Source: a virus. From it: a DNA stretch of 64,000 bases. The notes beneath the pieces are model-generated. The model did not search any database. It had not been told where the DNA came from and worked only from the letters and a program-made list of their open reading frames with translations. Positions 7,598-41,736 of this stretch are shown here, piece after piece. Within the stretch, counting starts at the first letter, position 1, and every line of letters starts with the position of its first letter. The stretch is from positions 1-64,000 of the IMG/VR virus record IMGVR_UViG_3300028920_000002; one strand, 5' to 3'. The translations under genes and the position numbers were made by a program.

Positions 7598-7626
7598 CTT
7601 ATCCCGTAGGACCCCATGTGGGTTGC
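7598..7626 (-). promoter_or_regulatory. Class B promoter-like motif GCAA-N20-ATAAG upstream of helicase
   Basis: Minus strand cgcGCAA cccacatggggtcctacGGG ATAAG; same motif at 12475, 19332, 23747. Confidence 0.55.
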
Positions 7627-12474: not shown

Positions 12475-12527
12475 CTTATCCCCGGACATCGAATACTCTT
12501 GCAGGAGCGGCGCCCCGCATTTACGCT
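12475..12527. promoter_or_regulatory. Back-to-back promoter pair sharing hexamer 12499-12504
   Basis: Plus: TTGCAG-N17-TACGCT (12499-12527); minus: CTGCAA-N15-GGGGATAAG (12504-12475). Confidence 0.6.
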
Positions 12528-19331: not shown

Positions 19332-19359
19332 CTTATCCCCGACTGAGCATCAATTTTGC
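19332..19359 (-). promoter_or_regulatory. Class B promoter-like motif
   Basis: Minus strand ctGCAA aattgatgctcagtc GGGGATAAG, just downstream of a terminator. Confidence 0.6.
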
Positions 19360-19395: not shown

Positions 19396-20766
19396 CTACT
19401 CGAACTCGTCAACCACTGATTGTTCTTCAGTGCAGATGACGATGTGCCCCCAGTCGGCCGGCTTGCTACGCCATCGGCTGGGTACGATGCACCAGATAAC
19501 CGGAATGCCTTTGGGTGGCTTGTCCGGCGCGGAGCCGTCACCGTCAGTCAAGTAGATGATGACGTCGGGGCGTGGCTTCAGTTTGGCGGCTCGCGCTAGC
19601 GGTTCGATGAAACTAGTGCCGCCGCGGCCTACTGGGTCGAGCCTGGGAATGTCCTTTAGCCTCACCAGCTTGAAGCCGTACTGCTGCGTGTCTGCATCAG
19701 CCCACCAGACCTGCTCCACACCGGTCTGCTCCATCAATGCGATGGCTTCGTTGTTCGCCTCGTGCAGCTGTTTGGTTCCCATGGAGCCAGAAGTGTCTCG
19801 GATGAGGCAGGGTACCCACTGCTGGTCAATCATGCCGGGTCGTAGAATGCCCCGCAGCAGTGAGCGTTTGGAGGGGCGCCGCAGGGAGAAGTCGCTGCCG
19901 CCTGAGATAGCGATACCGGAGGCGCGCCGAACGATGCGGCTGAGCGTACGCTTCCAGTCGTTCTTGGACTTCTTCTTGGGAACGCTGTCCAGCAGCTGTT
20001 TTAGGTGTCCAGGTACGGAGCCGCGACCCTGCTGCTCGACGTGCTCCCGCACGGCGTGAACTACTTCTTCTCGGGCGGATTGAACCTCGTCTTTGCTCCG
20101 GCCGAGACCACGTGACTTCAGCTCGTCTTCGACGGGGTCGTTGCTTGCACCACCGCCTGCGGAGCCGCTTACGCCGGAGCATATGTCCCAGCGCATTCCA
20201 TCCTTGCCACCCTGGCCCTTCTGCTTGGAGGAGCTCTTGCCACCCTGGCCCTGGTCGTCTCCGTCCCCACTGCCAGGCGGACTTCCCATCAGCCGGTAGA
20301 CCTTCTTGGCGTCTGCCTTCAGCCGCTCGAGATACTGTTCGAGCGTCTCGCCATCTGGATAGCCGTACGAACCCGGGAAAGCACCCCATGAAGGCAACTT
20401 CACTCCGGCCTGTTGAAGCGGACCGTTGATGGCCAGGTCTGCCGCGAGGGTGACCAAGTTCTCATCCTCGCCTTGTTGCAGCAGCACCTCGATGCGCTCC
20501 ATGTGTTCCTGCACATGCCAGCACTCGTGGAAGAGTACGCCGGCCAAGGTCTCTGGGTCACTCAGCTCGGGGTCGTCTACAACTCGTATTGGGTCGACGG
20601 AGAGGATGCAATCTTTGCTGACCCCGAGAGTGTTCAGCCCTACGACGAATACGGGGACCAGCTTGTACTGAATCGCCGACATGTACGGCGCGAGTTTCTC
20701 GAGCTCAAGGCGGGCGAGCTCCAGTAGGTCGCCCGCCTTGTCCTCATAGTCGATAGCTGCGCTCAT
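19396..20766 (-). CDS. HExxH metallopeptidase-like + VWA domain protein (DUF2201-like)
   Basis: GVLFHECWH, DLAIN, RRPSKR, IRDTSGSM (MIDAS), GRGGTSF, IYLTDGDG. Confidence 0.85.
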   Translation of the reverse strand: MSAAIDYEDKAGDLLELARLELEKLAPYMSAIQYKLVPVFVVGLNTLGVSKDCILSVDPIRVVDDPELSDPETLAGVLFHECWHVQEHMERIEVLLQQGEDENLVTLAADLAINGPLQQAGVKLPSWGAFPGSYGYPDGETLEQYLERLKADAKKVYRLMGSPPGSGDGDDQGQGGKSSSKQKGQGGKDGMRWDICSGVSGSAGGGASNDPVEDELKSRGLGRSKDEVQSAREEVVHAVREHVEQQGRGSVPGHLKQLLDSVPKKKSKNDWKRTLSRIVRRASGIAISGGSDFSLRRPSKRSLLRGILRPGMIDQQWVPCLIRDTSGSMGTKQLHEANNEAIALMEQTGVEQVWWADADTQQYGFKLVRLKDIPRLDPVGRGGTSFIEPLARAAKLKPRPDVIIYLTDGDGSAPDKPPKGIPVIWCIVPSRWRSKPADWGHIVICTEEQSVVDEFE

Positions 20767-22031
20767 AGACCCAGTGCGTTCGCGTACTTGGACAGGCCCT
20801 TCTGCCCGAGGCGGTAGACGACCTCTTCGGACACCTTCTTCAACTCAGGGGTTGCGTCTGTGGAGTCGAAGTAGACGTTGTGCTTGACCAGTGCGGCAGA
20901 AGATTTGACGGCCATGTCGCTGATTTTCTTGTCCATGCATCTGCCCAGGATGTCCCAGGCCGCAGGAGCGAGCTTGAGCTGCTCTTTGCGATTGGGTCGT
21001 CCGGTGAGGTACGTCACCATGCTGGTGAGCGCTGCAGCAGTGATGTCCAACCGTTGTGGGTTGGGCGTCCAGCCGTTGGTGAGCATCTCGAGGGGCTTGG
21101 GCAGGTCGCATTCGCGCAACCAGGTCAGCCACTCCTTCATGACACCTTGGCCCACACAGGCTTGCACGAGCTCACGCTCCAGTTCTCCTCGTAGCGCCTT
21201 GCGCGCCTCAGCGGCCTTCATCTGGTTTTCGTCGCTCGGGTCGGTGACGGGCAGGTCTGGGTACAGGCATGCGGCAGTAGCCTTGGCACGGCCGGCCCAG
21301 TTCCAGGTGCGGTGGCTAGGCCATGCACCGCCAGAGTCCGCATCATCCGGTTTGGGCTGCTGGTGAATCAGGGACGGCTTGCGCTTCATGAAGCCAACCA
21401 GTTGACCGCGTACTTCGGGCCATTCGTCGGGCCAGGAGTTAGTAACTCGCTGCTCTCCTTTTAGGACTGCCTCTACACGGAGCTGCGCATTGCCGAGCAG
21501 CCAGTCAATCCACTCGTCTGCGCTGGGCGCTCTGTAGGCCACATGCGCCAGTCGGTTGGCCAGAGGGGGCTCGAGGCCGAATCCGCCAGCGGCGTACTCC
21601 GGCGGGTTCATCGCAGTGACCACTCGCACTTTGGGTGGCAGGATGTGGTCTCCAACCCTGCGTTCATTGACCACGCTGAGCAGAGCAGCCTGGACCGCAG
21701 GGCGAGCGCATGAAATCTCGTCGATGAACAAGACACCGTAGCCGGTGTCTAGGAGCTTCCTCGCTTGAGGCAGAATGCACTCAATGACCACGCCGTTGGG
21801 CGTGGCGAAGGGGGCTCCCGTGAAGTCCTCCGGCTGCTTTGTAGCCGGGTAGACGGTTTGAACATTGAGACCTACTGCTGCACCGGCGGCCTGGATGCGC
21901 TCGGATTTGCCGATGCCGGAGAGCCCTTCGATGTTCACGGGCAATCCCCAGATGCAGGCGGGATTTGTCGGCTCGCCGTGGGGGACGAGAAACGCTGTCG
22001 CTAGGAACTGTTCTAGGCTAGCCATATTCAT
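20763..22031 (-). CDS. MoxR-type AAA+ ATPase
   Basis: EGLSGIGKS, LFIDEISCARPAVQAALL, AMNPP, LEPPLANRL, PSHRTW. Confidence 0.88.
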   Translation of the reverse strand: MNMASLEQFLATAFLVPHGEPTNPACIWGLPVNIEGLSGIGKSERIQAAGAAVGLNVQTVYPATKQPEDFTGAPFATPNGVVIECILPQARKLLDTGYGVLFIDEISCARPAVQAALLSVVNERRVGDHILPPKVRVVTAMNPPEYAAGGFGLEPPLANRLAHVAYRAPSADEWIDWLLGNAQLRVEAVLKGEQRVTNSWPDEWPEVRGQLVGFMKRKPSLIHQQPKPDDADSGGAWPSHRTWNWAGRAKATAACLYPDLPVTDPSDENQMKAAEARKALRGELERELVQACVGQGVMKEWLTWLRECDLPKPLEMLTNGWTPNPQRLDITAAALTSMVTYLTGRPNRKEQLKLAPAAWDILGRCMDKKISDMAVKSSAALVKHNVYFDSTDATPELKKVSEEVVYRLGQKGLSKYANALGL

Positions 22032-23746: not shown

Positions 23747-23800
23747 GTTATTCCGCATGCTGCGAATGCCTTGCGGGGTATTCAGGCAGTGGAGTACGCT
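23747..23800. promoter_or_regulatory. Back-to-back promoter pair sharing hexamer 23771-23776
   Basis: Plus: TTGCGG-N18-TACGCT toward RNAP gene; minus: CCGCAA-N16-GGAATAAC toward acidic-peptide operon. Confidence 0.55.
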
Positions 23801-23815
23801 ACAATCGACTGACGA

Positions 23816-26800
23816 ATGGCGCGCCTAGACCCTAGTGAATCGTTCGCCGACTTCCGAGACCGCACGCTCGAGGGCATCCGTTCTCATTTCCCTGTCAAGG
23901 GAAGAACGCAGACGCTGGAGCTGGATGACCTGGAAGTCGATAGCGCAGGTATGGAGTCCGACGACATCCGTGGGCAGCATAGGGCTAAGGTAGAAGGCGC
24001 TAGTTGGAGTGCGCCGGTCTACGCCACTATGTCGCTGCGCGACAACGAGACGGGCAAGGCCAAGAAGCAGCGCATCAAGTTGGCTGAACTGCCGATGATG
24101 ACCAGGCGCTACAGCTACATCGTCAATGGCCAGGAGTATCAGGTCGACAACCAGTGGCAGCTCAAGCCGGGCGTTTACACACGCCGGCGCCAGAATGGTG
24201 AGCTCGAGTCTCGTTTCAACATCGTCAACAAGCCTCACTTCGACTTGAAGTTCGAGCCGGACAAGAAGCGCTTCTTGATGGAGCGTGGGAAGTCCAGCGC
24301 CATTCCTCTCTACCCGCTGATGAAGTCTCTCGGTATCAGCGACGACGACCTGGAGAAGACGTGGGGCAAAGAGATTCTCGAGCAGAACAAGGCAGCACGC
24401 GGCGTATCAGGCGCCCTAGAGAAATTCTACAAGGCGGACCGAAAGAAGTCGGCGCCGTCCAAGGAGGAAGCAGAGCGCTACTTCTACGAGACGATGATGC
24501 AGTCAGAGCTCCGTCCAGAAGCGACCAAGCGAACGCTGGGTAAGGAGTACAGCACTGTAGAGGGCGATGCCGTCCTGCGCGCCACGAAGCGGATGTTGGA
24601 GGTACAGAGTGGTGCCCCAGAGGACGACCGAGACTCTCTCGTCTTCAAGGACCTGCGCGGAGCAGGCGACTACGCGTTCGACCGACTGACAGACTACAAG
24701 ACGCGCCGTAGTCTGCAGGGCAAGATGGGGCGCCAAATCAACAACGCCAGAAGCATCCGCGACGTGATTCGTCCTGGAACCTTCGACGACCAGATTCGTA
24801 GGACCTTCACCGAGAACAAGGGCGCGACCCGCGTGCCGGAGCAAATCAATCCGGTAGAGATGATTGCTGGGTCACAGCAGACGACCGTTATGGGTCCCGG
24901 TGGCATTCAAAGCGAGAACGCCATCATGGATGAGACGAAGTTCATCAACCCGACGCACTTCGGGTTCTTGGACCCCATCCATACCCCGGAGGGCAACAAG
25001 ACTGGTGTGACGCTGCATCTGCCCATGGGAGTGAGCAAGAAGGGGAAGTCTCCGGTCATCCCGGTCTACAACCTGAAAACCGGCAAGGGTGAGCGCATCA
25101 CTCCTGAGCAGTTCATGGACTCTACAGTGGCGCTGCCCGACCAGATGAAGTGGAAGGACAACAAGCCCACTCCTGTTGGCAAGAAGGTCAAGGTATCCAC
25201 ACCCGGCAACGAGCTCGATGAGGTGGACCCGAAGGACGCGAAGTACGCGATGTACCATCCATCGCAGGCGTTCAGTATCACGAGCAACCTGGTTCCCTTC
25301 ATGGGGAACACCTCTGGCAACCGTGCCAGCTATGCCACGCACCACATCGAGCAAGCCATCAGCCTCAAGGACCGGGATGTGCCTCTGGTCCAGTCTGGTA
25401 CTGGTGGTCAGCGGGAGGGCCTACGTACCTTCGAGGAGCTGTTGGGTCGGGGCTCGTCGCATCCCTCGCCGATGGATGGCGAAGTAGTCAAGGTGAAGAA
25501 GGATGGCGTCATCGTTAAGGGCAAGGATGGCAAGACCCGAGAGATTCAGCTCTACAACAACTTCCCGCTCAACGATGCCAAGGCCGTCATCGACTCTACT
25601 CCGACGGTGAAGGTCGGCGATAAGGTGAAGCAGGGCCAGCCTGTTGCTGACACCAACTTCACCAAAAACGGCACGCTGGCATTGGGTAAGAACCTGCGTA
25701 CTGCCTATCTGCCATTCAAGGGCTACAACTTCGAGGATGGCGTAGTCATCAGTGAGAGCGCCGCCAAGAAGCTTACTAGTGTCCACATGCACAAGCCGGA
25801 CACCAGGGTCGCCGACAGCGACGTGACCGACCCGAAGAAGTTCCGGGTCTTTCACCCTGAAGCGTTCACGAAGGACCAGTACAAGCTGGTCGGAGATGAC
25901 GGTATCGTGCGTGTTGGCACAAGGGTGCAGAAGGGAGACCCCCTCGTACTCAATACCAAGCCCTATCAACTGCGCGACAGGACTGGTATCGCCGCTGTGC
26001 GCAAGAACGCCTCAGGTGCGCAGACCGACGCCTCATTGAAATGGGACTCGGACTACGCAGGGGAGGTGGTGGGCGTACACCGCGGAAAGAAGGGCCAGAT
26101 TGGCGTCCACGTTCGCACTGAAGAGCCGATGCAGGTCGGCGACAAGCTGACTGGGCGGCACGGCAACAAGGGCATCGTCACCAAGGTCATCCCTGATAAG
26201 GAGATGCCTCATACCAGAGATGGCAAGCCGATTGAGGTAGCGCTCAACCCCGCTGGCGTGCCCGGTCGTATGAATGTGGGTCAGGTGCTCGAGACTGCGG
26301 CGGCCAAGGTAGCTGAGAAGACTGGTAAGCCCTACATCGTTGAAAACTTCGAGCATGGCGTCGACCAACTCAAGCGGGTGAAATCCGACTTGAAGAAGCA
26401 CGGCTTGTCGGACACTGAAGAGCTCATCGACCCGAATACTGGCAAGAGTCTAGGTAACGTCCTCGTCGGTCCGCAGCACATGCTCAAGCTGCAGCATCAG
26501 GTAGACAAGAAGGCGTCGGCCCGCTCCGGTATGAGCCTCAAGGGTGAAGAGGGAGAGGGGTATGACTACAACCTGCAGCCGGTGGGTGGCAGCAAGACCG
26601 GAGCGCAGAGCGTAGGCAACTTGGGTATCTACACACTGCTCGCTCACGGCGCCAAGGCCAACATCCGAGAGATGCAGACCTGGAAGAGCGAGGGCGAGGA
26701 TACCAGCCCGGAGGGGAAGCGTTGGGCGTCTCAGCACAATGAGGTCTGGCGCGCCATCCAGAGTGGAGACCCGCTGCCGCCACCCAAGCCAACGTTCGCC

Positions 26801-29800
26801 TTCCACAAATTCACCGAGATGTTGAAGGCGGCTGGCATCAACGTTGAGAAGCGTGGCAACACCATGCAGCTCAACCCGCTCACCAACCAGGACATCCTGA
26901 ACATGTCAGCGGGGGAGCTCTCGAAGCCAGCGGACCGGCTTCGCCAGGGCAAGCTCGATGAGAATGGCGACCCCATGCCCATGAAGGGAGGGCTGTTCGA
27001 CCCGAAGCTCACCGGTGGGCACGGTGGGAAGAAGTGGACGCACTTCAAACTGGCAGAGCCAGTTCCGAATCCGGTCTTCGAGGGAGCCATCCAGCGGCTG
27101 ACTGGGCTCACCGGTAAGCAGTACGAGTCAGTCGTCAACGGTGAGCAGTCCATCGACCTCAAGACGAGGAAGGTCGTACCTCTTGGCAAGGGCGCGACGG
27201 GAGGCCCCGCCATCAAGAGCATGCTCGATGGCATCGACGTGAACAAGGAGCTGGAGCAGTCCATGAAGGAGCTGGAGGCGGTGAAGCTGCCTTCTGGATT
27301 CGCTCACGGCGCCAGCACCACGAAGCTCGACAAGGCGATGAAGAAGGTGAGGCACCTTCAAGTCCTCAAGGACAAGAAGATGAGCCCCTCCGACGCCTAT
27401 ATGCTGGAGAACGTACCGGTCATCCCGCCGGCGATGCGCACGGTCAGCGTGCTGAAGGACGGCGGCGTTCGCTGGGGCGATTTGAACCAGCTCTACTCCG
27501 ACCTCGCCCAGACCAATGGCGAGATGGGCAAGATGAAGCAGCGCTCCTACTTCGGCGACAAGGACCTGAAGGACAGTCGAAAGGATGTCTACGATGGGCT
27601 TCGCGCTTTGGTAGGTATTGGTTCCTCGCCGGCTGAGAAGGAGGCCAAGAACAAGGGCGTGCTGCAACAGATTGCTGGCAGTCAGCCGAAGAAGGGCTAC
27701 TTCCAGAACACCCTGATGAACCGTCGTCAGGACATGAGCATGCGCTCGACCATCGTTCCTGAGCCGGCGATGGGGTTGGATGAGGTGGGCATTCCTCAGG
27801 AGCATGCACTCAAGCTGTTCCGTCCGTTCGTCGTCAAGAAGATGATGGACATCGGCGTGGCTCCAACTGAGTTGGATGCTCAGCACATGCTGGCCGAGAA
27901 GAAGAAGGATAAGGGGGTGTGGCGGGCGCTGGACTTGGCGATGGAGGACCGGCCGGTTCTGATGAAGCGTGACCCCGCACTGCACAAGCATTCGATGCAG
28001 GCGTTTCGCCCTTACCGTACGAGCGGGCACGCTATCAAGATTCATCCGCTGGTGACCAATGGCTACAACGCTGACTTCGATGGCGACACCATGAGCATGT
28101 TCGTCCCCATCTCCAAGGAGGCAGTGGACGAAGCCAAGCAGATGCAGCCGTCGAACAACCTGTTCAACGAGGCGCAGGGTAAGGTTACCTACACTCCGAC
28201 CTTGGAGAGTTCATTAGGCTTGTACAAGATGAGCCGCGTGCGTGGTGATGGTAAACAGCAGTACAAGAACCCCACCGACGTGCTCAAAGCCGTGGAGGCG
28301 GGCAAACTGCCGATGGACGAGCTCGTCACCGTCGGTAAGATGAAGACTACTGGTGGCCGCATCATGCTCTCCTCCGCGCTGCCTAAGCCGCTGCAGAACA
28401 AGATGCTGACTGACCACAAGTTCGTCCTGGACAAGAACGGCGTTCATCAGCTCTACACAGACTTGGCGAAGAACCATCGTGCGGACTTCGGAGAGGCGGC
28501 GAACAAGCTCAAGGACTTTGGTTTCGACGCTTCCTACGGCTCAGTACGCGTGGCACATCCACAGCACAAGGGACCCAACGCCATCGCGGCTATGGAGAAC
28601 CCGAAGCAGAACGTCAAGTTCCTGCCGATGGGAGCGCATACCTTGTCGCTCGACGACCTGGAACCCGACCGTGAGGTCCGAGACCGGGAAATCGCCAAGG
28701 CGCAGAAGCAGGTGGACAAGATTCGCTCCATGAAAGGACTGTCCAAGCTCGAGCGCGACCGGCGCAGCGTAGCCATCTGGGAGAAGGCGGATGCCGACAT
28801 CGCTCGGAAGCATGTAGGTCGCGCTGAGGCTAGAGATGACCGCCTGCACCAGATGTTGGCGGCCGGCACTAAGCCAAGTTGGTCTCAGTACAAGCAGCTC
28901 AAGCTCGCGCCGATGGTAATGCAGGATGCGGCTAACCGGGACATCCCGACGCCCATCAAGCACTCCTACTCAGAGGGCCTCGACATGGGCGAGTACTGGA
29001 CCGGGATGCATGGCGCTCGGCGAGGTACGGTCCTCAAGGTTCAGGAGGTGCAGGAGCCCGGCTACTTCTCCAAGCAGCTCATCAACACCACGATGAACAT
29101 GGTGGTGAACAAGGATGACTGCGGCACCAAGCGGGGCATAGCGGTTCCGGTCGGCTCGAAGGATATCTACGACCGTGAGTTGGCAGCGCCGGTAACAGTC
29201 AAGGGAAAGACCTTCAAGCCGGGCACGATTCTGGGACCGGACCTGGTCGCTCAGATTCGCTCCCACGACAAGAACGCGCAGCTCGTTGTACGGAGCGCGC
29301 TTCGCTGCGAGCACGGTGATGGCCTCTGCCAGCACTGCGCCGGCCTGTCCGCCGACGGCACCTACTACAAGAAGGGCTCGAATCTGGGTGTGCTCTCTGC
29401 CCAGTCATTGGGTGAGCGCGCCGTGCAGCTGCCGATGAAGATGTTCCACAGCGGCGGCGTCAAGCAGGGCGGACGGGGCGGAGTGGTCGGTATGTTCGAC
29501 CGCACCAAGCAGCTGACTGAGCTGCCCAAGAAGATTCCAGACGCCTCAACCCTGGCCATGCACTCGGGTACCGTCGACAAGGTAGAGCGGGACCCCACCG
29601 GCACGAACGTATGGATTGGTGGGCAACGACATCACGTGCCGAAGGACCGCTCTGGTATGCCTCTGCACATTCCCTTGCCAGGTGAGAAGGTCAAGGGTTG
29701 GCAGCCACCTAGAGTAGGGATGAAGGTGGAGGCCGGCCAGTCACTTAGCGACCCCACCCGCACCTTCGTGAATCCGCACGACCTGTACAAGGCCACGCGT

Positions 29801-30271
29801 AGTATGGAGAAGGTGCAGAACCATCTAGTCAACGAGCTTCACGGCATCTACTCTGAAGAGGGCGTGCGCCGACAGCACATCGAGACCGTCGTGAAGGCTA
29901 TGGGTAATCTCACCCGCGTAAGGAATCCAGGAGACGCGCAGGGTATTTTGAAAGGCGAGTACCAGCCGACGTCCAGGTTGCGGGAGCTCAATCGTCAGTT
30001 GTCCCGACAGGGCAAGAAGCCCGTGCAGCACTCACCCATCCTCAAGGGCATCGACGTGATGCCACTCACCGTCCAGGAAGATTGGATGGCGAAGCTGAAC
30101 TACGCTCAGCTCCAGAGAACGCTCACGGAAGGAGCTGCGATAGGAGCGAAGTCGCATCTGCACGGTACTCATCCCATCCCTGCGGCAGCCTACGGCGCCG
30201 AGTTCGGTTTGACTGAGAAGCACAAGAAGAAGTATCCGCACTTGGCCAAAGTCCCCTCCTGGTCCTACTGA
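23816..30271 (+). CDS. rpoBC: Single-chain fused beta-beta' DNA-directed RNA polymerase
   Basis: Beta motifs GYNFEDG, GDKLTGRHGNKG, LNPAGVPGRMNVGQ, LKLQHQVDKK; beta' motifs GLFDP, PVIPP, RPVLMKRDPALH, YNADFDGD, CEHGDGLCQHC, AQSLGE..QL.MKMFH; no internal stop. Confidence 0.95.
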   Translation: MARLDPSESFADFRDRTLEGIRSHFPVKGRTQTLELDDLEVDSAGMESDDIRGQHRAKVEGASWSAPVYATMSLRDNETGKAKKQRIKLAELPMMTRRYSYIVNGQEYQVDNQWQLKPGVYTRRRQNGELESRFNIVNKPHFDLKFEPDKKRFLMERGKSSAIPLYPLMKSLGISDDDLEKTWGKEILEQNKAARGVSGALEKFYKADRKKSAPSKEEAERYFYETMMQSELRPEATKRTLGKEYSTVEGDAVLRATKRMLEVQSGAPEDDRDSLVFKDLRGAGDYAFDRLTDYKTRRSLQGKMGRQINNARSIRDVIRPGTFDDQIRRTFTENKGATRVPEQINPVEMIAGSQQTTVMGPGGIQSENAIMDETKFINPTHFGFLDPIHTPEGNKTGVTLHLPMGVSKKGKSPVIPVYNLKTGKGERITPEQFMDSTVALPDQMKWKDNKPTPVGKKVKVSTPGNELDEVDPKDAKYAMYHPSQAFSITSNLVPFMGNTSGNRASYATHHIEQAISLKDRDVPLVQSGTGGQREGLRTFEELLGRGSSHPSPMDGEVVKVKKDGVIVKGKDGKTREIQLYNNFPLNDAKAVIDSTPTVKVGDKVKQGQPVADTNFTKNGTLALGKNLRTAYLPFKGYNFEDGVVISESAAKKLTSVHMHKPDTRVADSDVTDPKKFRVFHPEAFTKDQYKLVGDDGIVRVGTRVQKGDPLVLNTKPYQLRDRTGIAAVRKNASGAQTDASLKWDSDYAGEVVGVHRGKKGQIGVHVRTEEPMQVGDKLTGRHGNKGIVTKVIPDKEMPHTRDGKPIEVALNPAGVPGRMNVGQVLETAAAKVAEKTGKPYIVENFEHGVDQLKRVKSDLKKHGLSDTEELIDPNTGKSLGNVLVGPQHMLKLQHQVDKKASARSGMSLKGEEGEGYDYNLQPVGGSKTGAQSVGNLGIYTLLAHGAKANIREMQTWKSEGEDTSPEGKRWASQHNEVWRAIQSGDPLPPPKPTFAFHKFTEMLKAAGINVEKRGNTMQLNPLTNQDILNMSAGELSKPADRLRQGKLDENGDPMPMKGGLFDPKLTGGHGGKKWTHFKLAEPVPNPVFEGAIQRLTGLTGKQYESVVNGEQSIDLKTRKVVPLGKGATGGPAIKSMLDGIDVNKELEQSMKELEAVKLPSGFAHGASTTKLDKAMKKVRHLQVLKDKKMSPSDAYMLENVPVIPPAMRTVSVLKDGGVRWGDLNQLYSDLAQTNGEMGKMKQRSYFGDKDLKDSRKDVYDGLRALVGIGSSPAEKEAKNKGVLQQIAGSQPKKGYFQNTLMNRRQDMSMRSTIVPEPAMGLDEVGIPQEHALKLFRPFVVKKMMDIGVAPTELDAQHMLAEKKKDKGVWRALDLAMEDRPVLMKRDPALHKHSMQAFRPYRTSGHAIKIHPLVTNGYNADFDGDTMSMFVPISKEAVDEAKQMQPSNNLFNEAQGKVTYTPTLESSLGLYKMSRVRGDGKQQYKNPTDVLKAVEAGKLPMDELVTVGKMKTTGGRIMLSSALPKPLQNKMLTDHKFVLDKNGVHQLYTDLAKNHRADFGEAANKLKDFGFDASYGSVRVAHPQHKGPNAIAAMENPKQNVKFLPMGAHTLSLDDLEPDREVRDREIAKAQKQVDKIRSMKGLSKLERDRRSVAIWEKADADIARKHVGRAEARDDRLHQMLAAGTKPSWSQYKQLKLAPMVMQDAANRDIPTPIKHSYSEGLDMGEYWTGMHGARRGTVLKVQEVQEPGYFSKQLINTTMNMVVNKDDCGTKRGIAVPVGSKDIYDRELAAPVTVKGKTFKPGTILGPDLVAQIRSHDKNAQLVVRSALRCEHGDGLCQHCAGLSADGTYYKKGSNLGVLSAQSLGERAVQLPMKMFHSGGVKQGGRGGVVGMFDRTKQLTELPKKIPDASTLAMHSGTVDKVERDPTGTNVWIGGQRHHVPKDRSGMPLHIPLPGEKVKGWQPPRVGMKVEAGQSLSDPTRTFVNPHDLYKATRSMEKVQNHLVNELHGIYSEEGVRRQHIETVVKAMGNLTRVRNPGDAQGILKGEYQPTSRLRELNRQLSRQGKKPVQHSPILKGIDVMPLTVQEDWMAKLNYAQLQRTLTEGAAIGAKSHLHGTHPIPAAAYGAEFGLTEKHKKKYPHLAKVPSWSY

Positions 30272-31506
30272 TGGGTCTCAAAGAGAACAAATTCTTCGAC
30301 CCGCTATCCTGGCGAAGCTTCGCTCATGGGGGCTGGTCTCAACCCGAGGGGTCCATCCCAGCCTACATACACGAGGCCAGGGTCATCGATGTCAATCTGA
30401 CCAACTGGACCATCGATTGCCACACCATCTTCGACCAGAAGATGTTCTTGGACGTACAGGTCGCCTCCCCCTACATGCACCCAGCTCGCGGAGAGGGGAT
30501 GTATGTCATCCCGGAAGTTGGTGCGAAGTGCCTCATCTGTATTCCATCGGATGGGCCTCCGCCGTTCGTCTTGGCCTTCCTAATGCCGATGGAGACCAAG
30601 ACCAAGACCACTGCCGTCACCGACCCCATCGAGGCGAATGACTCGAACGCCAGCTTTGGCGGTGGGCGCAAACGCCCCAAGCCCGGAGACATCGTCGTTC
30701 AGGGTCGTGACGGGAACTTCATGCGGCTCCACCGTGGAGGGGTTGCGGAGTTTGGAGCCAGCCAGTTGGCCCAACGCATCTGCATTCCGCTCGGCAACCT
30801 CGTCACGGACATCAGTCAGAACTACAACCACTTCAACTCTGGCGGGGCCATCAACTGGGGCGTCCGAGATGGTGGTACGAGCAACCCGGAGTCGGAGTAC
30901 AGACACACCATTCGTGTGTTCGCGGATGACGAGTACGCGGACATGCGCTTCGCCATGGGCAAGTTGAAGCGCCCGGTGGCTGAGCCAGTAGGAGAAGACG
31001 GCGAGACCTCGAACTTGGAGCAGCTCGGTATCGGAACTACCGAGGACATCGTGTTCGAGATGGTACTTGCGCCCGGTGGGTTCGATGGTGGAAACGGCGA
31101 CCAGAAGGATGTGAAGGAAACTCGAGACCTGACCAAGCTGCGCATCTTCTTCGACCGCGGTGGCAACGCCATGGCTCGCTTCGAGGGAGCTGTGGATATG
31201 CGTGTGAAGAAGCGACTCAAGCTGACGGTGGACGAAGACATCGACATCATCGGCAAGAAGCGCATCTCCATCGAGGCCACGGAGATTCTGCGCCTGATTG
31301 GCCAGAATGGTCTCGAGCTTGGTACGGGTGGTGGAGTCACAGCCATCAACGGTGGTACGAAGGCTGTTGCCTACGTAGGCTCTCCAGTGACTGTTACCGT
31401 CCCCCCAGGGCTTCTGGTTACTACACCCGGAGGTGAAGGCTTCGTGAACCCAGGTCAGACCTTCACCGGATTCATCACGCTCGGCAACTCTACCATTCTC
31501 GTCTGA
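30271..31506 (+). CDS. Baseplate hub/spike protein (gp5/gpV-like OB fold)
   Basis: ARVIDVN..VASPY..GEGMYVIPEVGAKC, then beta-rich repeats. Confidence 0.7.
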   Translation: MGLKENKFFDPLSWRSFAHGGWSQPEGSIPAYIHEARVIDVNLTNWTIDCHTIFDQKMFLDVQVASPYMHPARGEGMYVIPEVGAKCLICIPSDGPPPFVLAFLMPMETKTKTTAVTDPIEANDSNASFGGGRKRPKPGDIVVQGRDGNFMRLHRGGVAEFGASQLAQRICIPLGNLVTDISQNYNHFNSGGAINWGVRDGGTSNPESEYRHTIRVFADDEYADMRFAMGKLKRPVAEPVGEDGETSNLEQLGIGTTEDIVFEMVLAPGGFDGGNGDQKDVKETRDLTKLRIFFDRGGNAMARFEGAVDMRVKKRLKLTVDEDIDIIGKKRISIEATEILRLIGQNGLELGTGGGVTAINGGTKAVAYVGSPVTVTVPPGLLVTTPGGEGFVNPGQTFTGFITLGNSTILV

Positions 31507-37526: not shown

Positions 37527-39323
37527 ATGGCGGCTGAACAAGTCTACGTCGAACCAGAGGATGAGTGGGACGATAGTTGGTTCGACGACCGCATATGGAC
37601 ACCAGAGCCCGAGATTGTAGAGCAGCCGCTCGTCATACGTCAGAAGCGGAAGAAGCTGCCGAGAATACCGGAGGTTAGACCTTCGGACTTCACCGCCTTC
37701 GCCTTCCGCATGCCGAGGGAGGACGAAGAAGGGCGCATCGTCATCGACAACTTCTCGTTCGAGGGTCGCCGTCATCTGCGCCGTATATACGACACTCCCG
37801 CTAAGAAGCTGCTGCTCATCTGTGGTCGACAGGTCGAGAAGTCCACACTGCTGGGGAACATCGCTCTCTGCTACATGAGTCTAGTGCAGGGCTACCGCGT
37901 CTTGTACGTCAGCCCTTCTGCAACGCAGACGAAGACGTTCAGCAACGACCGAGTCAAGGAGCCGATTGAGACCAGTCCGATTCTCAAGAAGTTCACGACT
38001 CACATGCTGTCGCAGAACATCTTCGAGAAACAGTTCATCAACCGCAGCAAGATTACGATGCGGTACGCATTCCTCAATGCGGACCGAGCTCGAGGTATCC
38101 CCTCGTACATGCTGGACGTCGATGAGTTGCAAGACATCCTCGGAGACAACCTGCCGGTTCTCGAAGAGTGCCTCAGCCACGCTCCCGACCGTTGGAAGAG
38201 ACAGGTCTACTCAGGAACGCCCAAGAGTCTCGATAACACCATCGAGCAGTACCGCGTAAAGCGCTCAACGCAGAGTGAGTGGGTGGTGCCACACAACTGT
38301 AGAGGAGGAGAGGGAGGTCGCTTCTGGAACATCCTTGGTGAGAAGAACATCGGGCTGAAAGGTCTCATCTGTGAGAACTGCGGCACTCTCATCGACCCCA
38401 TGTGTGACGACGCGCAGTGGGCCTGCATGGTCTACCCCAGCGACAAGGTGGACTTCGAGAGCTACCGAATCTCTCAATTGATGGTGCCTTGGGTACCCTG
38501 GATTGACGTCCTCACGAAGTATCGGAACTACGGGCGCGACCGGTTCTACAACGAGGTGTTGGGGCTGAGCTATGACTCGGGGCTACGCCCGCTCACCATG
38601 CAGCAGGTGAAGGACCGATGCATGGACCACATCACCATGTCTGCAGTGGAGGCGTATCGGTCCAGAGCCTACACCACTCCGGTCTTCGCCGGCATCGACT
38701 GGGGTACTGGAGAGCACAGCTACACCGTCGTCTTCTTGGGCACCTACGTCGACATGCAGTTCCGCGTCTTCTTCGCTCACCGATTCACTGGTGAGGAGAC
38801 TGAACCCGAGCTGCAAATCAAGCGCATCATCGAACTCCTGCGGTACTTCAACGTCCGGCTCATCGGCTGCGACTATGGTGGCGGGTTCGCCATGAACCAC
38901 CGGCTCATTCGAGAGTTCGGAGCCGACAAGGTTCATCAGTTTCAGTATCTGGCACGAACCACCGGTAAGAAGGTGCAGTGGGACCCCAAGATGGGCCGCT
39001 GGAAGATTGCACGCACCGAAGTGATGAGCGACATCTTCAACGCCATCAAGCGCAACAAGTGCGAATTTCCTCGGTGGGAGGAGTTCGAGGAGCCTCACGG
39101 CAGTGACATGCTGAACATCTACTCGGAGTACAACGAGAAGCTCCGCATGATTCAGTACGACCACTCCCCCGACAACCCAGACGATTCCTTCCACGCGTTC
39201 TTGTACTGCTGGTTGGTGAGCATGCTCATCATCCCACGTCCTGACATCGTCGCGCCGACGAAGGAGGACCCACGTACTGGAATGCCCATGCAGAACTTCG
39301 CAGGTCCGGTAGACCAGAGCTAG
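37527..39323 (+). CDS. terL: Terminase large subunit (GpA-like)
   Basis: FSFEGRRHL..ICGRQVEKST, LDVDELQD, YSGTPK, FYNEVLG, AGIDWG, IGCDYG, PDDSFHA. Confidence 0.9.
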   Translation: MAAEQVYVEPEDEWDDSWFDDRIWTPEPEIVEQPLVIRQKRKKLPRIPEVRPSDFTAFAFRMPREDEEGRIVIDNFSFEGRRHLRRIYDTPAKKLLLICGRQVEKSTLLGNIALCYMSLVQGYRVLYVSPSATQTKTFSNDRVKEPIETSPILKKFTTHMLSQNIFEKQFINRSKITMRYAFLNADRARGIPSYMLDVDELQDILGDNLPVLEECLSHAPDRWKRQVYSGTPKSLDNTIEQYRVKRSTQSEWVVPHNCRGGEGGRFWNILGEKNIGLKGLICENCGTLIDPMCDDAQWACMVYPSDKVDFESYRISQLMVPWVPWIDVLTKYRNYGRDRFYNEVLGLSYDSGLRPLTMQQVKDRCMDHITMSAVEAYRSRAYTTPVFAGIDWGTGEHSYTVVFLGTYVDMQFRVFFAHRFTGEETEPELQIKRIIELLRYFNVRLIGCDYGGGFAMNHRLIREFGADKVHQFQYLARTTGKKVQWDPKMGRWKIARTEVMSDIFNAIKRNKCEFPRWEEFEEPHGSDMLNIYSEYNEKLRMIQYDHSPDNPDDSFHAFLYCWLVSMLIIPRPDIVAPTKEDPRTGMPMQNFAGPVDQS

Positions 39324-40045
39324 TCGTCGAAGTCGATGTGGCTCAGGATGCGGTCATGGATGTCGCATCCAGTTTCCGGGAAGCGTTTGGTGGCCTCCGG
39401 TAATCCGTGCTTGGTACGGATGTAGAAGTAGGCAGCGTGGCGTAGACTACGTCTTCCCGCATCTAACCACCCATAGGCGATGCGCGTCATAGGCTCAGCA
39501 TCGAGTAGTTCGATGGGGCAGTTGACCGTGAGCTTATTTGCTAGCTCCAAGAAAGGCTCCCACGGTTCATCCTTGCCCAGAACCTTCTCGATGAGCGCGA
39601 AGTACTCTTCGCCGATGGCCATGAACACCTTGGCCCAATTCAGAATCTCGTCGGCATCAGTGATACGTCGGTCTTTGTACTCGTGGACCTTGAGCCACAT
39701 CGAGACGACCGAATCCTCGTCGAGCTGAAGCGGAGGTACACCGGCTCCACACATCTGCTCTAGGATGTCCACGCGCCGTTCGAGTGCGCGGGCGGTGGCG
39801 AACGCCTGAGCGGCGGTGACTGACACTTCAGGTAGGGTCACTCCTCGCCGGCGCGCCTCGGCCAGGGCGGACACTTCCTCCGACCAATACATCCTGGGCG
39901 CATTCAGCCTCTGTCCTGTAGGATAGTGGGGTCGGAGCATTCCTTGGCGCGCGAGTTGCATCACCTGGTGGACACTGACCCCGAGGACCTCTGCGGCCTC
40001 CTCGGGAGGAATCAGGCGGTTGCTTCCCATGACCTTGACCGACAT
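39320..40045 (-). CDS. MerR/excisionase-type HTH protein with coiled coil
   Basis: LIPPEEAAEVLGVSVHQVMQLARQGMLRP; ARALERRVDILE. Confidence 0.75.
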   Translation of the reverse strand: MSVKVMGSNRLIPPEEAAEVLGVSVHQVMQLARQGMLRPHYPTGQRLNAPRMYWSEEVSALAEARRRGVTLPEVSVTAAQAFATARALERRVDILEQMCGAGVPPLQLDEDSVVSMWLKVHEYKDRRITDADEILNWAKVFMAIGEEYFALIEKVLGKDEPWEPFLELANKLTVNCPIELLDAEPMTRIAYGWLDAGRRSLRHAAYFYIRTKHGLPEATKRFPETGCDIHDRILSHIDFDD

Positions 40046-40080
40046 GGTACTTCTTTTGTGCACGGCTGAAAGAGGTTCTG

Positions 40081-41736
40081 ATGCACGACCTTCCATCCAT
40101 CACCCTTCTGCAGCAGGCTCACGCAGTCCCCAAGACCGGAGAAGAACTCGAAGTTCTCGGGAAGACCGCGGCTTGTAGGTATGAATCGGGTGAGTGCTCC
40201 AGTCTCAGCGATGCTGTGGTGGAGACCGTCAAACACGCCGGCCTCTCCCCGGAGCAGGTGAAACGGGTCACCGAGTTCACCAACCAGGCGGCGTACCTCA
40301 ACGAGTTCCGCAAGCTGGGGAGCAACCACAAGTACATCGAGTTCGACGGCGGCCCGGCCGACCCCGGCGCTGTGTTGAAGGACCTCAACGATGGGAGTGG
40401 CGGCACCGTCTTCGACCGTGGCGTCCTCGACTACGCCTCCCAGCCGTCGACTCCTGTGAAGACCGCATCCGTGAAGCGCAACATGGCTCGGCTGGAGAAG
40501 GTGGCTCAGCGCTTCATGAGCGATGCGGACTTGGCACAGTTCGCTGGCATGCAGCCGATGGGCATGGAGAATTGGCGGGACAACCCCATGTATCAGAACC
40601 AGCGGAAGCTGCAGCAGGTGGCGATGCTCAGTGCCATGACCGGCCGGCAGCCCATCAAGGTCGCTGCTGCTGAAGAGAAGCCGTTGCCCGGTAACGGGCT
40701 CGGTGAGCGAGGGAGGGGCGCTCCAGGACCGGGTTCTGGGTGTGACCAGCCGGGACGTCGGCTTGGGCAGAGGGGCGAGGTCCCCCGTAAGTTTAGGCAC
40801 CGCGCTGCGGATTTGTCGGCGGTGCAGCTCGCTGGTGAGCGGAAGCAGTCGTCGGCCGAGCTCGACTTCAACCCGGCCGAAGCCGCCTTCGAGGACATGT
40901 TCCGAGCCGACGGGCCGGAGACTGAGCCGTACCACGAGCCCATGCAGGACACGCTCGACATGAGGGAGAAGCTCGCCGGCGCGCGGGACCACCTGACGGG
41001 TGAGCTCGGAGGGCTCGAGCTCGCCTTCGGCGAGGTCCTCGAGGACATGTACCAGCAGGTCAAGCAGGCGGCGCTGCAGGGCGCGACGCTCGGCCAGGTA
41101 ATTCGTGCCTGGAACGACGTGGTCCCCGGGCCGGAGTACGTGAAGACCGCCTTCGCCCACATCGGCCCGCGCCTGCATGAGGAGGGAGTCTTCCCCTCCC
41201 TCGACTCCATCGGCGAGTCGCTCACCAAGACTGCGGCCACTGGGCTGGTAAACCACAGTCACCCTTTGGTCCAGTCCATGGCCGCGTATATCACCGTGCT
41301 CGATAAGCTGGCTCATGTGCGCGCAGCACGGGATGAGCTGGCTCAGGAGTTCGAGCGCATCGATTGGTTCGCCAAGCGTGCAGCTCCGACCGCTCAAGGG
41401 CTCAACATCATGAAGCGGATGGCCCAGAGTGGAGGGCTCATCCCAAAAGTGACGGGCGCTGCCAGGCGAGCGGGTGAAGCTGTAGCTCCTCGGGTGCAGC
41501 AGGTGGGGGAGGCCCTCCTAGGCGCCGGCTCTCCAGCCGCTGCGCAGATGGGGCAACTCGCTGGCGGCGCCGTCAAGTACACCCCGCATGCCGTTGCCGG
41601 ATTGGCCGGCCTCGAGGCGTACCAGCGCGCCAAGTACAACCCGGCCTTCCAGACGGCGAAGAACGCCCTGCTCGGCCGCATTCCCTACACCCACCCCTGG
41701 CAAGTTCGGCAGTACCAGCTGCAGATGGGAGCATGA
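40081..41736 (+). CDS. Putative head assembly/internal protein with about 10 K-x-A sites
   Basis: GKTAA, VKTAS, EKVAQ, IKVAA, EKLAG, VKQAA, VKTAF, TKTAA, DKLAH, AKRAA; glycine-zipper C-terminus. Confidence 0.65.
   Translation: MHDLPSITLLQQAHAVPKTGEELEVLGKTAACRYESGECSSLSDAVVETVKHAGLSPEQVKRVTEFTNQAAYLNEFRKLGSNHKYIEFDGGPADPGAVLKDLNDGSGGTVFDRGVLDYASQPSTPVKTASVKRNMARLEKVAQRFMSDADLAQFAGMQPMGMENWRDNPMYQNQRKLQQVAMLSAMTGRQPIKVAAAEEKPLPGNGLGERGRGAPGPGSGCDQPGRRLGQRGEVPRKFRHRAADLSAVQLAGERKQSSAELDFNPAEAAFEDMFRADGPETEPYHEPMQDTLDMREKLAGARDHLTGELGGLELAFGEVLEDMYQQVKQAALQGATLGQVIRAWNDVVPGPEYVKTAFAHIGPRLHEEGVFPSLDSIGESLTKTAATGLVNHSHPLVQSMAAYITVLDKLAHVRAARDELAQEFERIDWFAKRAAPTAQGLNIMKRMAQSGGLIPKVTGAARRAGEAVAPRVQQVGEALLGAGSPAAAQMGQLAGGAVKYTPHAVAGLAGLEAYQRAKYNPAFQTAKNALLGRIPYTHPWQVRQYQLQMGA

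Follow-up and report, generated by a model that had tools for sequence, protein, structure and literature searches.

Can a phage carry the core of a bacterial-type RNA polymerase (RNAP) in one polypeptide, and would such an enzyme still need the α subunit? The question is raised by a stretch of 64,000 nucleotides, positions 1 to 64,000 of the IMG/VR virus record IMGVR_UViG_3300028920_000002 (186,723 bp in all), which we call the window. A first-pass annotation, made from the letters of the window, had described its open reading frame (ORF) 23816-30271 as a phage-encoded, bacterial-like, single-chain β-β' RNAP coupled to a spike gene. The comparisons given below indicate that this ORF codes, in one polypeptide, for the catalytic core of a bacterial-type RNAP that belongs to the phage itself, and that such fusion is the normal state in a deep, very large and almost unstudied lineage of uncultured phages. 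Our best overall explanation, which we hold with reasonable though far from complete confidence, is a single-chain core that would work with a phage σ factor and without α and ω, would be made in coupling with the spike protein, and would probably be packaged.

Identity of the fused enzyme

The parent record is a phage genome of ~187 kb with direct terminal repeats, rated 100% complete; the DNA sequencing runs that contain this phage sequence come from marine sediment. The RNAP gene is present in it in one copy (n=1), with phage genes for a DNA polymerase, helicases, large terminase and portal around it. The claim of a phage-encoded single-chain enzyme thus stands, the genome being a complete phage genome and the protein one frame of 2151 aa.

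Pfam places Rpb2_3 and Rpb2_6 at aa 341-904 (E 3e-63), and Rpb1_1, Rpb1_2 and Rpb1_5 at aa 1073-2040, i.e., β followed by β', in the cellular order. Among solved structures, the top matches of the fused protein are bacterial β' subunits (E 1e-97), and the first 1100 residues find bacterial β on top (E 6e-83) in a nearly end-to-end alignment, archaeal and eukaryotic subunits matching the same residues at just E 1e-19 to 1e-27. Cyanobacterial and Thermus β subunits (1100-1119 aa) align with the fused protein from ~aa 16 to aa 1011. The order of β and β' motifs, and their alignability to RpoB and RpoC, had been read correctly in the first-pass annotation. Identity to the bacterial subunits is ~25-30%. 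In a PHROG search the protein matches an unnamed PHROG (E 1e-99), and the PHROGs of phiKZ/AR9-type subunits are hit weakly (E 1e-5 to 5e-28); none of 50,697 phage records matched the gene in a megablast search. Source annotations label the fused proteins 'RNA polymerase subunit beta'', and the members of their database clusters bear no informative names.

No element of the active centre is missing (Table 1): the catalytic motifs, i.e., the β Lys motif and NADFDGD, are intact, and bridge helix, trigger loop and second Zn site are present as well. The β double-psi barrel has both catalytic lysines and the pattern GDKxxGRHGNKG, and the segments of the bridge helix and of the trigger-loop N-arm align with E. 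coli. The β' clamp helices are the docking site for σ region 2 in bacteria; these helices and the β flap, the two σ-docking elements, are both present at normal length. The four Cys of the second Zn site, which we take to correspond to E. coli C814, C888, C895 and C898, are the only ones in the protein, and the Cys4 zinc-binding domain at the N-terminus of β' is absent, with no Cys in that region.

The equivalent of rifampicin-binding cluster I is substituted, which is reported here for the first time. This part of rpoB is the resistance-determining region, where substitutions are known to give rifampicin resistance. On this background, the replacements predict an enzyme that is insensitive to rifampicin.

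The size of the enzyme needs some care. E. coli β and β' add up to 1342 + 1407 = 2749 aa, in agreement with the figure of roughly 2750 that had been set against 2151 aa; the conclusion that the enzyme is 'minimal' was, however, overstated. When the β module was compared with E. coli RpoB by phmmer and MAFFT, its losses proved to be, besides those listed in Table 1, E. coli residues 10-32; short losses in the β' module are E. coli β' 120-149 and 551-567. In total, ~650 residues are found in E. coli only, and ~390 of them fall within the SI1, SI2 and SI3 (E. coli β' 947-1163) regions. By this alignment, about 60% of the ~600-aa shortfall is the absence of these three lineage-specific insertions, and the β part is nearly end-to-end alignable with complete bacterial subunits of 1100-1119 aa.

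The junction between β and β'

The junction is a conserved, indel-free β-hairpin according to structure prediction, and is described here for the first time. The end of β, GINVEK (aa 1007-1012), corresponds to E. coli LGINIE, and four residues further on MQLNPLT corresponds to residues ~20-26 of E. coli β'. A linker is essentially lacking, and nothing in the fused protein corresponds to the N-terminal ~20-25 residues of E. coli β'. In the alignment of 33 relatives the junction is free of indels and conserved residue by residue. An AlphaFold2 (AF2) model of aa 860-1330 (predicted TM-score, pTM, 0.68) folds it into a hairpin with strands at aa 1008-1013 and 1016-1021, block means of the predicted local distance difference test (pLDDT) being 73-95; the β' part of this model superposes on E. 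coli β' (E 1e-12, root-mean-square deviation 3-5 A).

Distribution of the fused form

A search of 5.8 billion proteins gave >120 clusters of relatives with 54-64% identity, nearly all of them 2130-2170 aa long, on contigs of up to ~200 kb. A search of IMG/VR gave 55 loci, of which 42 have an unbroken frame that is 2059 aa or longer, and further lineages with continuous frames of ~2050-2150 aa are found at 31-50% identity; with all lineages followed, the IMG/VR loci with fused RNAP number about 75. The enzyme is therefore not a singular one, and represents the standard form of a very large and widespread lineage of phages of ~165-200 kb, with just two sets of cultured relatives.

Two short database proteins that look like stand-alone 'β', P0271 and P0288, were followed up as possible products of split genes. 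At 22/23 loci around P0271 the frame measures ~2050-2150 aa or more, and the exception, L071, is a frameshift: L070 and L071 are both 100% identical to P0271, the former with 2147 continuous codons, the latter frameshifted into 1078 + 1294 codons. The three P0288-type loci that were checked have continuous frames of 2076-2304 codons with 31-39% identity to the enzyme studied here (P0001). A search for related loci with a further protein, P0282, returned nothing. No close two-gene relative was verified in this follow-up, and short 'β-only' or 'β'-only' database proteins of the family are not to be taken for true split genes unless checked. A first reading of a β' tree, by which the fused clade would be nested among stand-alone β' genes, was rejected, as the relatives of P0271 and P0288 have continuous frames.

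Some clusters have longer proteins (~2440-2680 aa), most of them with intein or LAGLIDADG domains, and orthologous genes of 2440-3249 codons occur at six loci (L039, L043, L046, L050, L057, L088; proteins P0030, P0038, P0040). Several of the long orthologues carry intein-splicing/LAGLIDADG domains, and mobile elements therefore target the RNAP gene repeatedly. In Vibrio phage D181, a homing endonuclease gene lies inside the matched RNAP region.

The closest known systems are Salmonella phage Arash (Gp206 + Gp216, OQ632216.1, PMC10585845) and Vibrio phages D69, D148 and D181, with 31-32% identity to P0001 over aa 12-2131 (92% coverage). Arash and D69 share with the present enzyme the β-to-β' junction, the loss of the Zn finger and the lack of α; Arash gp10 is an orthologous σ, and Arash, described as a myovirus, likewise has its RNAP gene by the portal gene in a genome of ~180-187 kb. 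They differ in that β' is split at a point equivalent to aa ~1503-1512, which gives an enzyme of two chains (1525 + 606 aa); the two RNAP genes of Arash are separated by 4.7 kb with other genes. The Arash paper annotates the subunits and gives mass spectrometry (MS) counts; the fusion is not described there and activity was not assayed (PMC10585845).

Table 1. Features of the RNAP gene and its surroundings (positions in the window unless marked as genome; Ec, E. coli numbering)
Feature	Position	Strand	Remarks
Portal gene, 685 aa	16542..18599	+	Matches Arash gp204 'portal protein' in tblastn (E 2e-81); 5.2 kb upstream of RNAP
Leftward promoter-like element GCAA-N-GGAATAAC	23747..23774	-	One of 10 GCAA-N16-21-[GA]ATAA[GC] copies
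Rightward promoter-like element: TTGCGG, 18 nt, TACGCT overlapping TACAAT	23771..23805	+	Ends 10-15 nt before ATG
Fused β-β' RNAP gene (P0001)	23816..30271	+	Uninterrupted ORF, 2151 codons/aa
β module (aa 1-1012)	23816..26851	+	Without E. coli SI1 (Ec 215-355), SI2 (Ec 945-1047), Ec 1126-1141, Ec 1159-1194
Rifampicin-binding cluster I equivalent	24821..24892	+	Q513R, D516E, H526G, R529Q, S531T (E. coli numbering; alignment)
β catalytic barrel motif GDKLTGRHGNKG (aa 775-786)	26138..26173	+	Matches E. coli GDKMAGRHGNKG with K1065 and K1073
Fusion junction GINVEK-RGNT-MQLNPLT	26834..26884	+	β C-terminal strand, ~2-4-residue turn, β' N-terminal strand
β' module (aa 1017-2151)	26864..30268	+	SI3 absent (gaps within Ec 947-1163), as are some shorter segments
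TGGHGGKK, in place of β' N-terminal zinc-binding domain (E. coli C70, C72, C85, C88)	27011..27034	+	Conserved clade-wide
β' clamp helices, start	27479..27541	+	Normal length, DLNxLY conserved (alignment)
Catalytic Mg-binding loop NADFDGD (aa 1418-1424)	28067..28087	+	Motif, alignment
Second β' zinc site: C1769, C1831, C1838, C1841	29114..29338	+	Sole four Cys of the whole protein
TGATG overlap, RNAP stop / spike start	30269..30273	+	TGA 30269-30271 shares A with ATG (1 nt)
Central-spike-like protein P0121, 411 aa	30271..31506	+	N-terminal OB fold, then β-rich spike body
Minus-strand motif copies	7598-7626, 12475-12502, 19332-19359, 23747-23774; genome ~88.4-88.7 kb (three), 114.0, 117.2, 136.0 kb	-	
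σ70-family gene, ~250 aa	genome ~103.2-104.0 kb, outside window		Orthologue of Arash gp10

Probable partners of the fused core

Pfam searches for α (PF01000, PF01193) and ω (PF01192) found no homologue in the complete 186,723-bp genome and matched in 14/14 control genomes, with the proviso that divergent α analogues would escape Pfam. Nor does PF01000 match in any of 20 related records, Arash and D69 included, so that together with the present genome 21/21 records are α-less. The earlier observation that α and ω genes are missing from the vicinity of the RNAP gene thus extends to the whole genome. For σ it stood only in part: none is found near the RNAP gene, but a σ70-family gene is located elsewhere, at ~103 kb.

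This gene came to light through weak matches to σ regions 3 and 4, a Pfam search of the genome with Sigma70_r2 having given no match. Alone, its product matches Sigma70_r3 at E 1e-3 and SigA in PDB at E 0.002. Arash gp10, which bears the annotation σ, is a homologue (E 5e-17), and the gene occurs in 5/5 complete relatives. A profile of 7 orthologues matches RpoD, SigA, HrdB, SigB and FliA over regions 2-4, up to E 2e-15, and Sigma70_r3 is found in 7/7 of them. The fused RNAP is most likely σ-dependent, to judge by this gene and the preserved docking elements.

Two other proteins have some resemblance to σ. A 159-aa Cys-rich protein (genome ~129205-129684, L004:1207-1686, outside the window), in which only σ70 region 4 is recognisable (Pfam E 2e-9), could be a minimal σ or a σ-appropriator-like regulator beside the full σ-like gene. 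A 258-aa ORF (window 39320-40096, minus strand), which comes directly behind the large terminase gene but is encoded on the other strand, contains a weak MerR/HTH_17-type domain and a sub-threshold Sigma70_r4 match.

Promoter-like elements upstream of the RNAP gene

The 17 nt next to the RNAP ATG contain no Shine-Dalgarno motif, as the first-pass annotation had also remarked in noting the lack of a clear ribosome-binding site; the sole GGAG is 22-25 nt upstream. The region just before the ATG is instead occupied by a rightward promoter-like element that looks σ70-like (TTGCGG-N18-TACGCT). Of 37 distinct relatives, 31 have a TAnnnT 5-16 nt before the ATG (shuffle mean 6.1, maximum 16), the commonest distance being 8-11 nt, and the complete TTGCnn-N18-TAnnnT is upstream of the RNAP gene in 8/37 (shuffle mean 0.18). 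An element so close to the ATG predicts a leaderless mRNA, which would explain the missing ribosome-binding site; the RNAP mRNA is thus probably leaderless or near-leaderless, a feature reported here for the first time.

A second element upstream of the RNAP gene faces leftward. It belongs to a group of 10 genome copies of GCAA-N16-21-[GA]ATAA[GC] (consensus GCAAA...GGGATAAG), 10/10 of them on the minus strand; the version with GATAA[GC] has 9 copies against 1.6 expected, and a GCAA...GATAA element precedes the RNAP gene in 20/37 relatives (shuffle mean 0.23). The copies at 7598, 12475, 19332 and 88582 are just upstream of leftward genes, and the GCAA...GATAA[GC] class heads replication operons. 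Enrichment of k-mers in intergenic regions yielded GGGATAA and little else. The -10-like part of the motif resembles the σ28-type GCCGATAA, and we regard the GCAA...GATAA[GC] class as a candidate promoter class for the phage σ.

Coupling to the spike gene

The overlap of the RNAP stop with the start of the next gene, seen already in the first-pass annotation, is confirmed as a 1-nt overlap. No Shine-Dalgarno motif precedes the ATG of that gene, and the TGATG arrangement points to coupling by termination and reinitiation. Among the relatives, the stop-to-start offset is most commonly -1 (TGATG or TAATG), within a range of -13 to +32.

For the 411-aa product, neither Pfam (Gp5_OB and Phage_base_V included) nor PHROG gave a match at threshold, and the same is true of most of the neighbour genes. 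Its neighbours in the Atlas language model are, all the same, members of the Gp5_OB and Phage_base_V families. An AF2 model (pLDDT 70.6) contains an OB fold at aa 30-105, and the top 20 Foldseek matches of this model are all spikes, led by VgrG, contractile injection system spikes, the R2 pyocin spike and phi92 gp138 (probability 0.97-1.0). With VIA, Z is 7.2-7.8 for VgrG, the R2 pyocin spike, P2 gpV, gp138 and Mu gp45, values that are middling yet consistent. The modelled protein is central-spike-like, of the T4 gp5/P2 gpV/VgrG group, the match being moderate, not strong. The label 'gp5-like' thus applies at the level of the fold, and does not extend to membership in the sequence family or to the gp5 lysozyme domain.

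The claim of coupling to the spike gene holds for the tight linkage to this spike-like gene, with a conserved overlap. Wherever the sequence of a close relative continues beyond the RNAP gene, a spike homologue follows that gene directly, and in most loci of the next lineage it lies within ~0.05-1 kb; no spike homologue is detectable in the ~110 kb of Arash that was searched. At 32 related loci a portal homologue precedes the RNAP gene at a distance of 1-3.4 kb, and the gene order portal, RNAP, spike is mostly kept across deep divergence.

Proposed mode of action and its alternatives

In the scheme that we prefer, the fused core and the phage σ70-family factor would form a two-polypeptide holoenzyme that reads phage promoters, a step of which we are quite confident. 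To our knowledge, all characterised bacterial-type RNAPs need the α dimer to assemble β and β'. Here neither α nor ω would be needed, and the covalent β-β' link and the compact core would replace the α-dimer assembly platform; we lean towards this step, with rather less assurance. Arash and D69 have a separate chain for the C-terminal part of β' and are likewise α-less, and full covalent linkage is therefore not what makes α dispensable; α independence of the fused RNAP is plausible in view of the gene content of the group. The RNAP gene would head a rightward block of virion genes, transcribed from the ATG-proximal promoter-like element into a leaderless or near-leaderless mRNA, and its translational coupling to the central-spike gene would ensure that the enzyme is made along with the virion proteins. 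Finally, some RNAP and σ would be packed in the particle, delivered with the DNA, and start transcription independently of the host, which we consider an evenly balanced matter.

The published virion proteome of Arash bears on this last step. Gp206 is the most-detected protein (3516 spectra), and Gp216 and the σ factor Gp10 are also found, the latter with 100% coverage (PMC10585845). A number of observations weigh on the other side. The same MS analysis called 116 of ~250 proteins 'structural', ribonucleotide reductases included (PMC10585845); such an over-inclusive list makes carry-over of abundant non-virion proteins likely, and is therefore weak evidence for packaging. The alignment to E. 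coli reveals no N- or C-terminal extension that might serve as a capsid-targeting signal. Host RNAP could, from the look of the RNAP promoter-like element, read the RNAP gene after infection, which would make packaging unnecessary, and TTGC-N19-22-[GC]TAnnnT as a genome-wide promoter class was rejected, with 14 copies against 15.9 expected. No RNA run is among the sequencing runs listed for the phage sequence. Recruitment of host α and ω may also take place, being compatible with the sequence.

One alternative that draws on these observations is an RNAP that acts only inside the cell: made after infection, its gene being read by host RNAP from the σ70-like promoter, it would, with the phage σ, take charge of middle and late transcription in the manner of T7 RNAP or the phiKZ non-virion RNAP, and would not enter the virion. 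We give it a little under an even chance. The resemblance of the upstream element to host σ70 promoters, the protein without a terminal extension for capsid targeting, and the over-inclusive 'structural proteome' of Arash (116 proteins, ribonucleotide reductase subunits among them) all agree with it, as does the presence of one RNAP in the present genome, given that the RNAP-packaging phiKZ-like phages have a second, non-virion one (PMC7598289). It fits less well with the position of the gene between portal and spike, coupled to the latter, across lineages with 31-64% identity, or with the top spectral count of Gp206 and the 100% coverage of Gp10 in Arash. The minus-strand GCAA...GATAA[GC] class, moreover, may need a reader other than host σ70 from the start of infection.

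At the other extreme is a self-sufficient holoenzyme of two polypeptides, the fused chain and the ~250-aa σ, with no α, no ω and no N-terminal Zn finger, which would be packed in the capsid and injected, the fusion having been selected for refolding without partners after ejection. We advance this tentatively, as something that we would sooner doubt than believe. If true, it would be the smallest known σ-dependent RNAP of the cellular type, capable of host-independent, rifampicin-insensitive transcription.

A third possibility is that the fused chain still recruits a host α dimer, perhaps also ω, for assembly or activity, and this we consider unlikely. It would suit the near-complete β part, alignable end-to-end with bacterial subunits of 1100 aa, and has precedents: the RpoBC fusions of Helicobacter and Wolbachia, as well as engineered E. 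coli β-β' fusions, keep α. The E. coli β segments 1126-1141 and 1159-1194, however, which we take to lie within the C-terminal region implicated in α binding, are deleted in the phage enzyme. Relatives with 31-64% identity come from very different habitats and presumably from different hosts, and conserved dependence on such diverse α subunits is the less parsimonious assumption. Multisubunit-type RNAPs without α are, furthermore, established in the non-virion enzymes of phiKZ and AR9 (PMC7598289).

An artefact, i.e., an assembly chimera, a frameshift joining two genes, or captured or contaminating cellular rpoBC, has next to no chance of being the explanation and is refuted by the comparative data: the frameshift of L071 relative to L070 does illustrate that single contigs can mislead in either direction, but one continuous frame recurs in >120 clusters as well as at about 75 independent loci, which stem from many samples. 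The junction, moreover, shows residue-by-residue conservation, the genome is a complete one that has terminal repeats and phage hallmark genes, and bacterial subunits are only about 25-30% identical.

Comparison with known polymerases

Fusion of β and β' is known in cells. The RpoB-RpoC fusions of Helicobacter and Wolbachia, and the engineered E. coli tethers, have β followed by β', with the ends near enough to be joined; the cellular RpoBC fusions are of full size (~2900 aa), have both Zn sites, and assemble with α2 and ω. The present enzyme has ~750 residues fewer, lacks the N-terminal Zn finger, and comes from a genome with no gene for α or ω.

The phiKZ/AR9-type RNAPs are phage relatives of β and β' that work without α and ω, and their virion form is packaged and injected (PMC7598289, PMC7824862). 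They consist, however, of 4-5 polypeptides, are much more divergent, and occur as two paralogous sets per genome; they have no σ, the non-virion form using gp68 or gp226, whereas here we find one chain, one copy and a σ70-family gene. Gp66 of the crAss-like phage phi14:2 and gp96 of Thermus phage P23-45 resemble the present enzyme in having both catalytic barrels in one polypeptide encoded among virion genes (PMC10770324; bioRxiv 10.1101/2020.03.07.982082). Both are too divergent for β and β' to be detected by sequence, and belong to giant virion or tape-measure polypeptides. The enzyme described here, on the other hand, matches bacterial β and β' at E 6e-83 and E 1e-97, respectively; it is free of additional domains, and its flap, clamp helices, bridge helix and trigger loop are all retained.

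The mReC group (Weinheimer & Aylward 2020, PMC7481178) is similar in that it comprises uncultured large tailed phages, many of them from IMG/VR, with β and β' matching COG0085 and COG0086 and the RNAP located among virion genes. The features used for entry into that group are seen here as well: Pfam equivalents of COG0085 and COG0086 together with NADFDGD, in a complete phage genome. The rows of its Supplementary Data 2 that were examined nevertheless have two proteins each (β of ~1000 or ~1365 aa, β' of ~900-1010 aa), with no fusion of ~2150 aa among them, and the article mentions fusion for crAssphage only and does not discuss σ, α or virion association (PMC7481178). Judging by these rows, the survey, which lists two-gene forms, seems to have overlooked the fused form.

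In the literature we found no publication on a fully fused, σ-partnered, α-less phage RNAP, and reviews of phage multisubunit RNAPs treat the split phiKZ and AR9 enzymes (PMC7598289, PMC7824862). Phage-encoded RNAPs of the cellular type are already known, and the full β-β' fusion with a σ gene is an added variant. If it works α-free with one small σ, it would be a minimal model for σ-dependent initiation and RNAP assembly, a tractable target for structure determination, and a possible orthogonal transcription module of two genes. Phages of this lineage probably operate transcription machinery of their own, and may also carry it with them, which bears on phage escape from host control and from defences or drugs that target RNAP. 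The interest is solid, not exceptional, pending activity, α independence or packaging.

Other genes linked to the RNAP gene

The portal gene is much nearer to the RNAP gene in Arash and the sister lineages than in the present genome. Arash has one small gene between the two, whereas here the interval contains a leftward cassette of ~5 kb, with an HNH-endonuclease-like (456 aa) and an ATPase-like (422 aa) gene at 19396-22031 of the window, minus strand. Directly after the gene for the C-terminal part of β', Arash has gp217, annotated as DNA helicase and detected in virions (PMC10585845). A 1329-aa ORF of the present phage (genome 169231-173220, outside the window) is 38% identical to gp217 in its C-terminal ~460 aa; by this match, the RNAP-linked helicase is here part of a larger fusion protein elsewhere in the genome.

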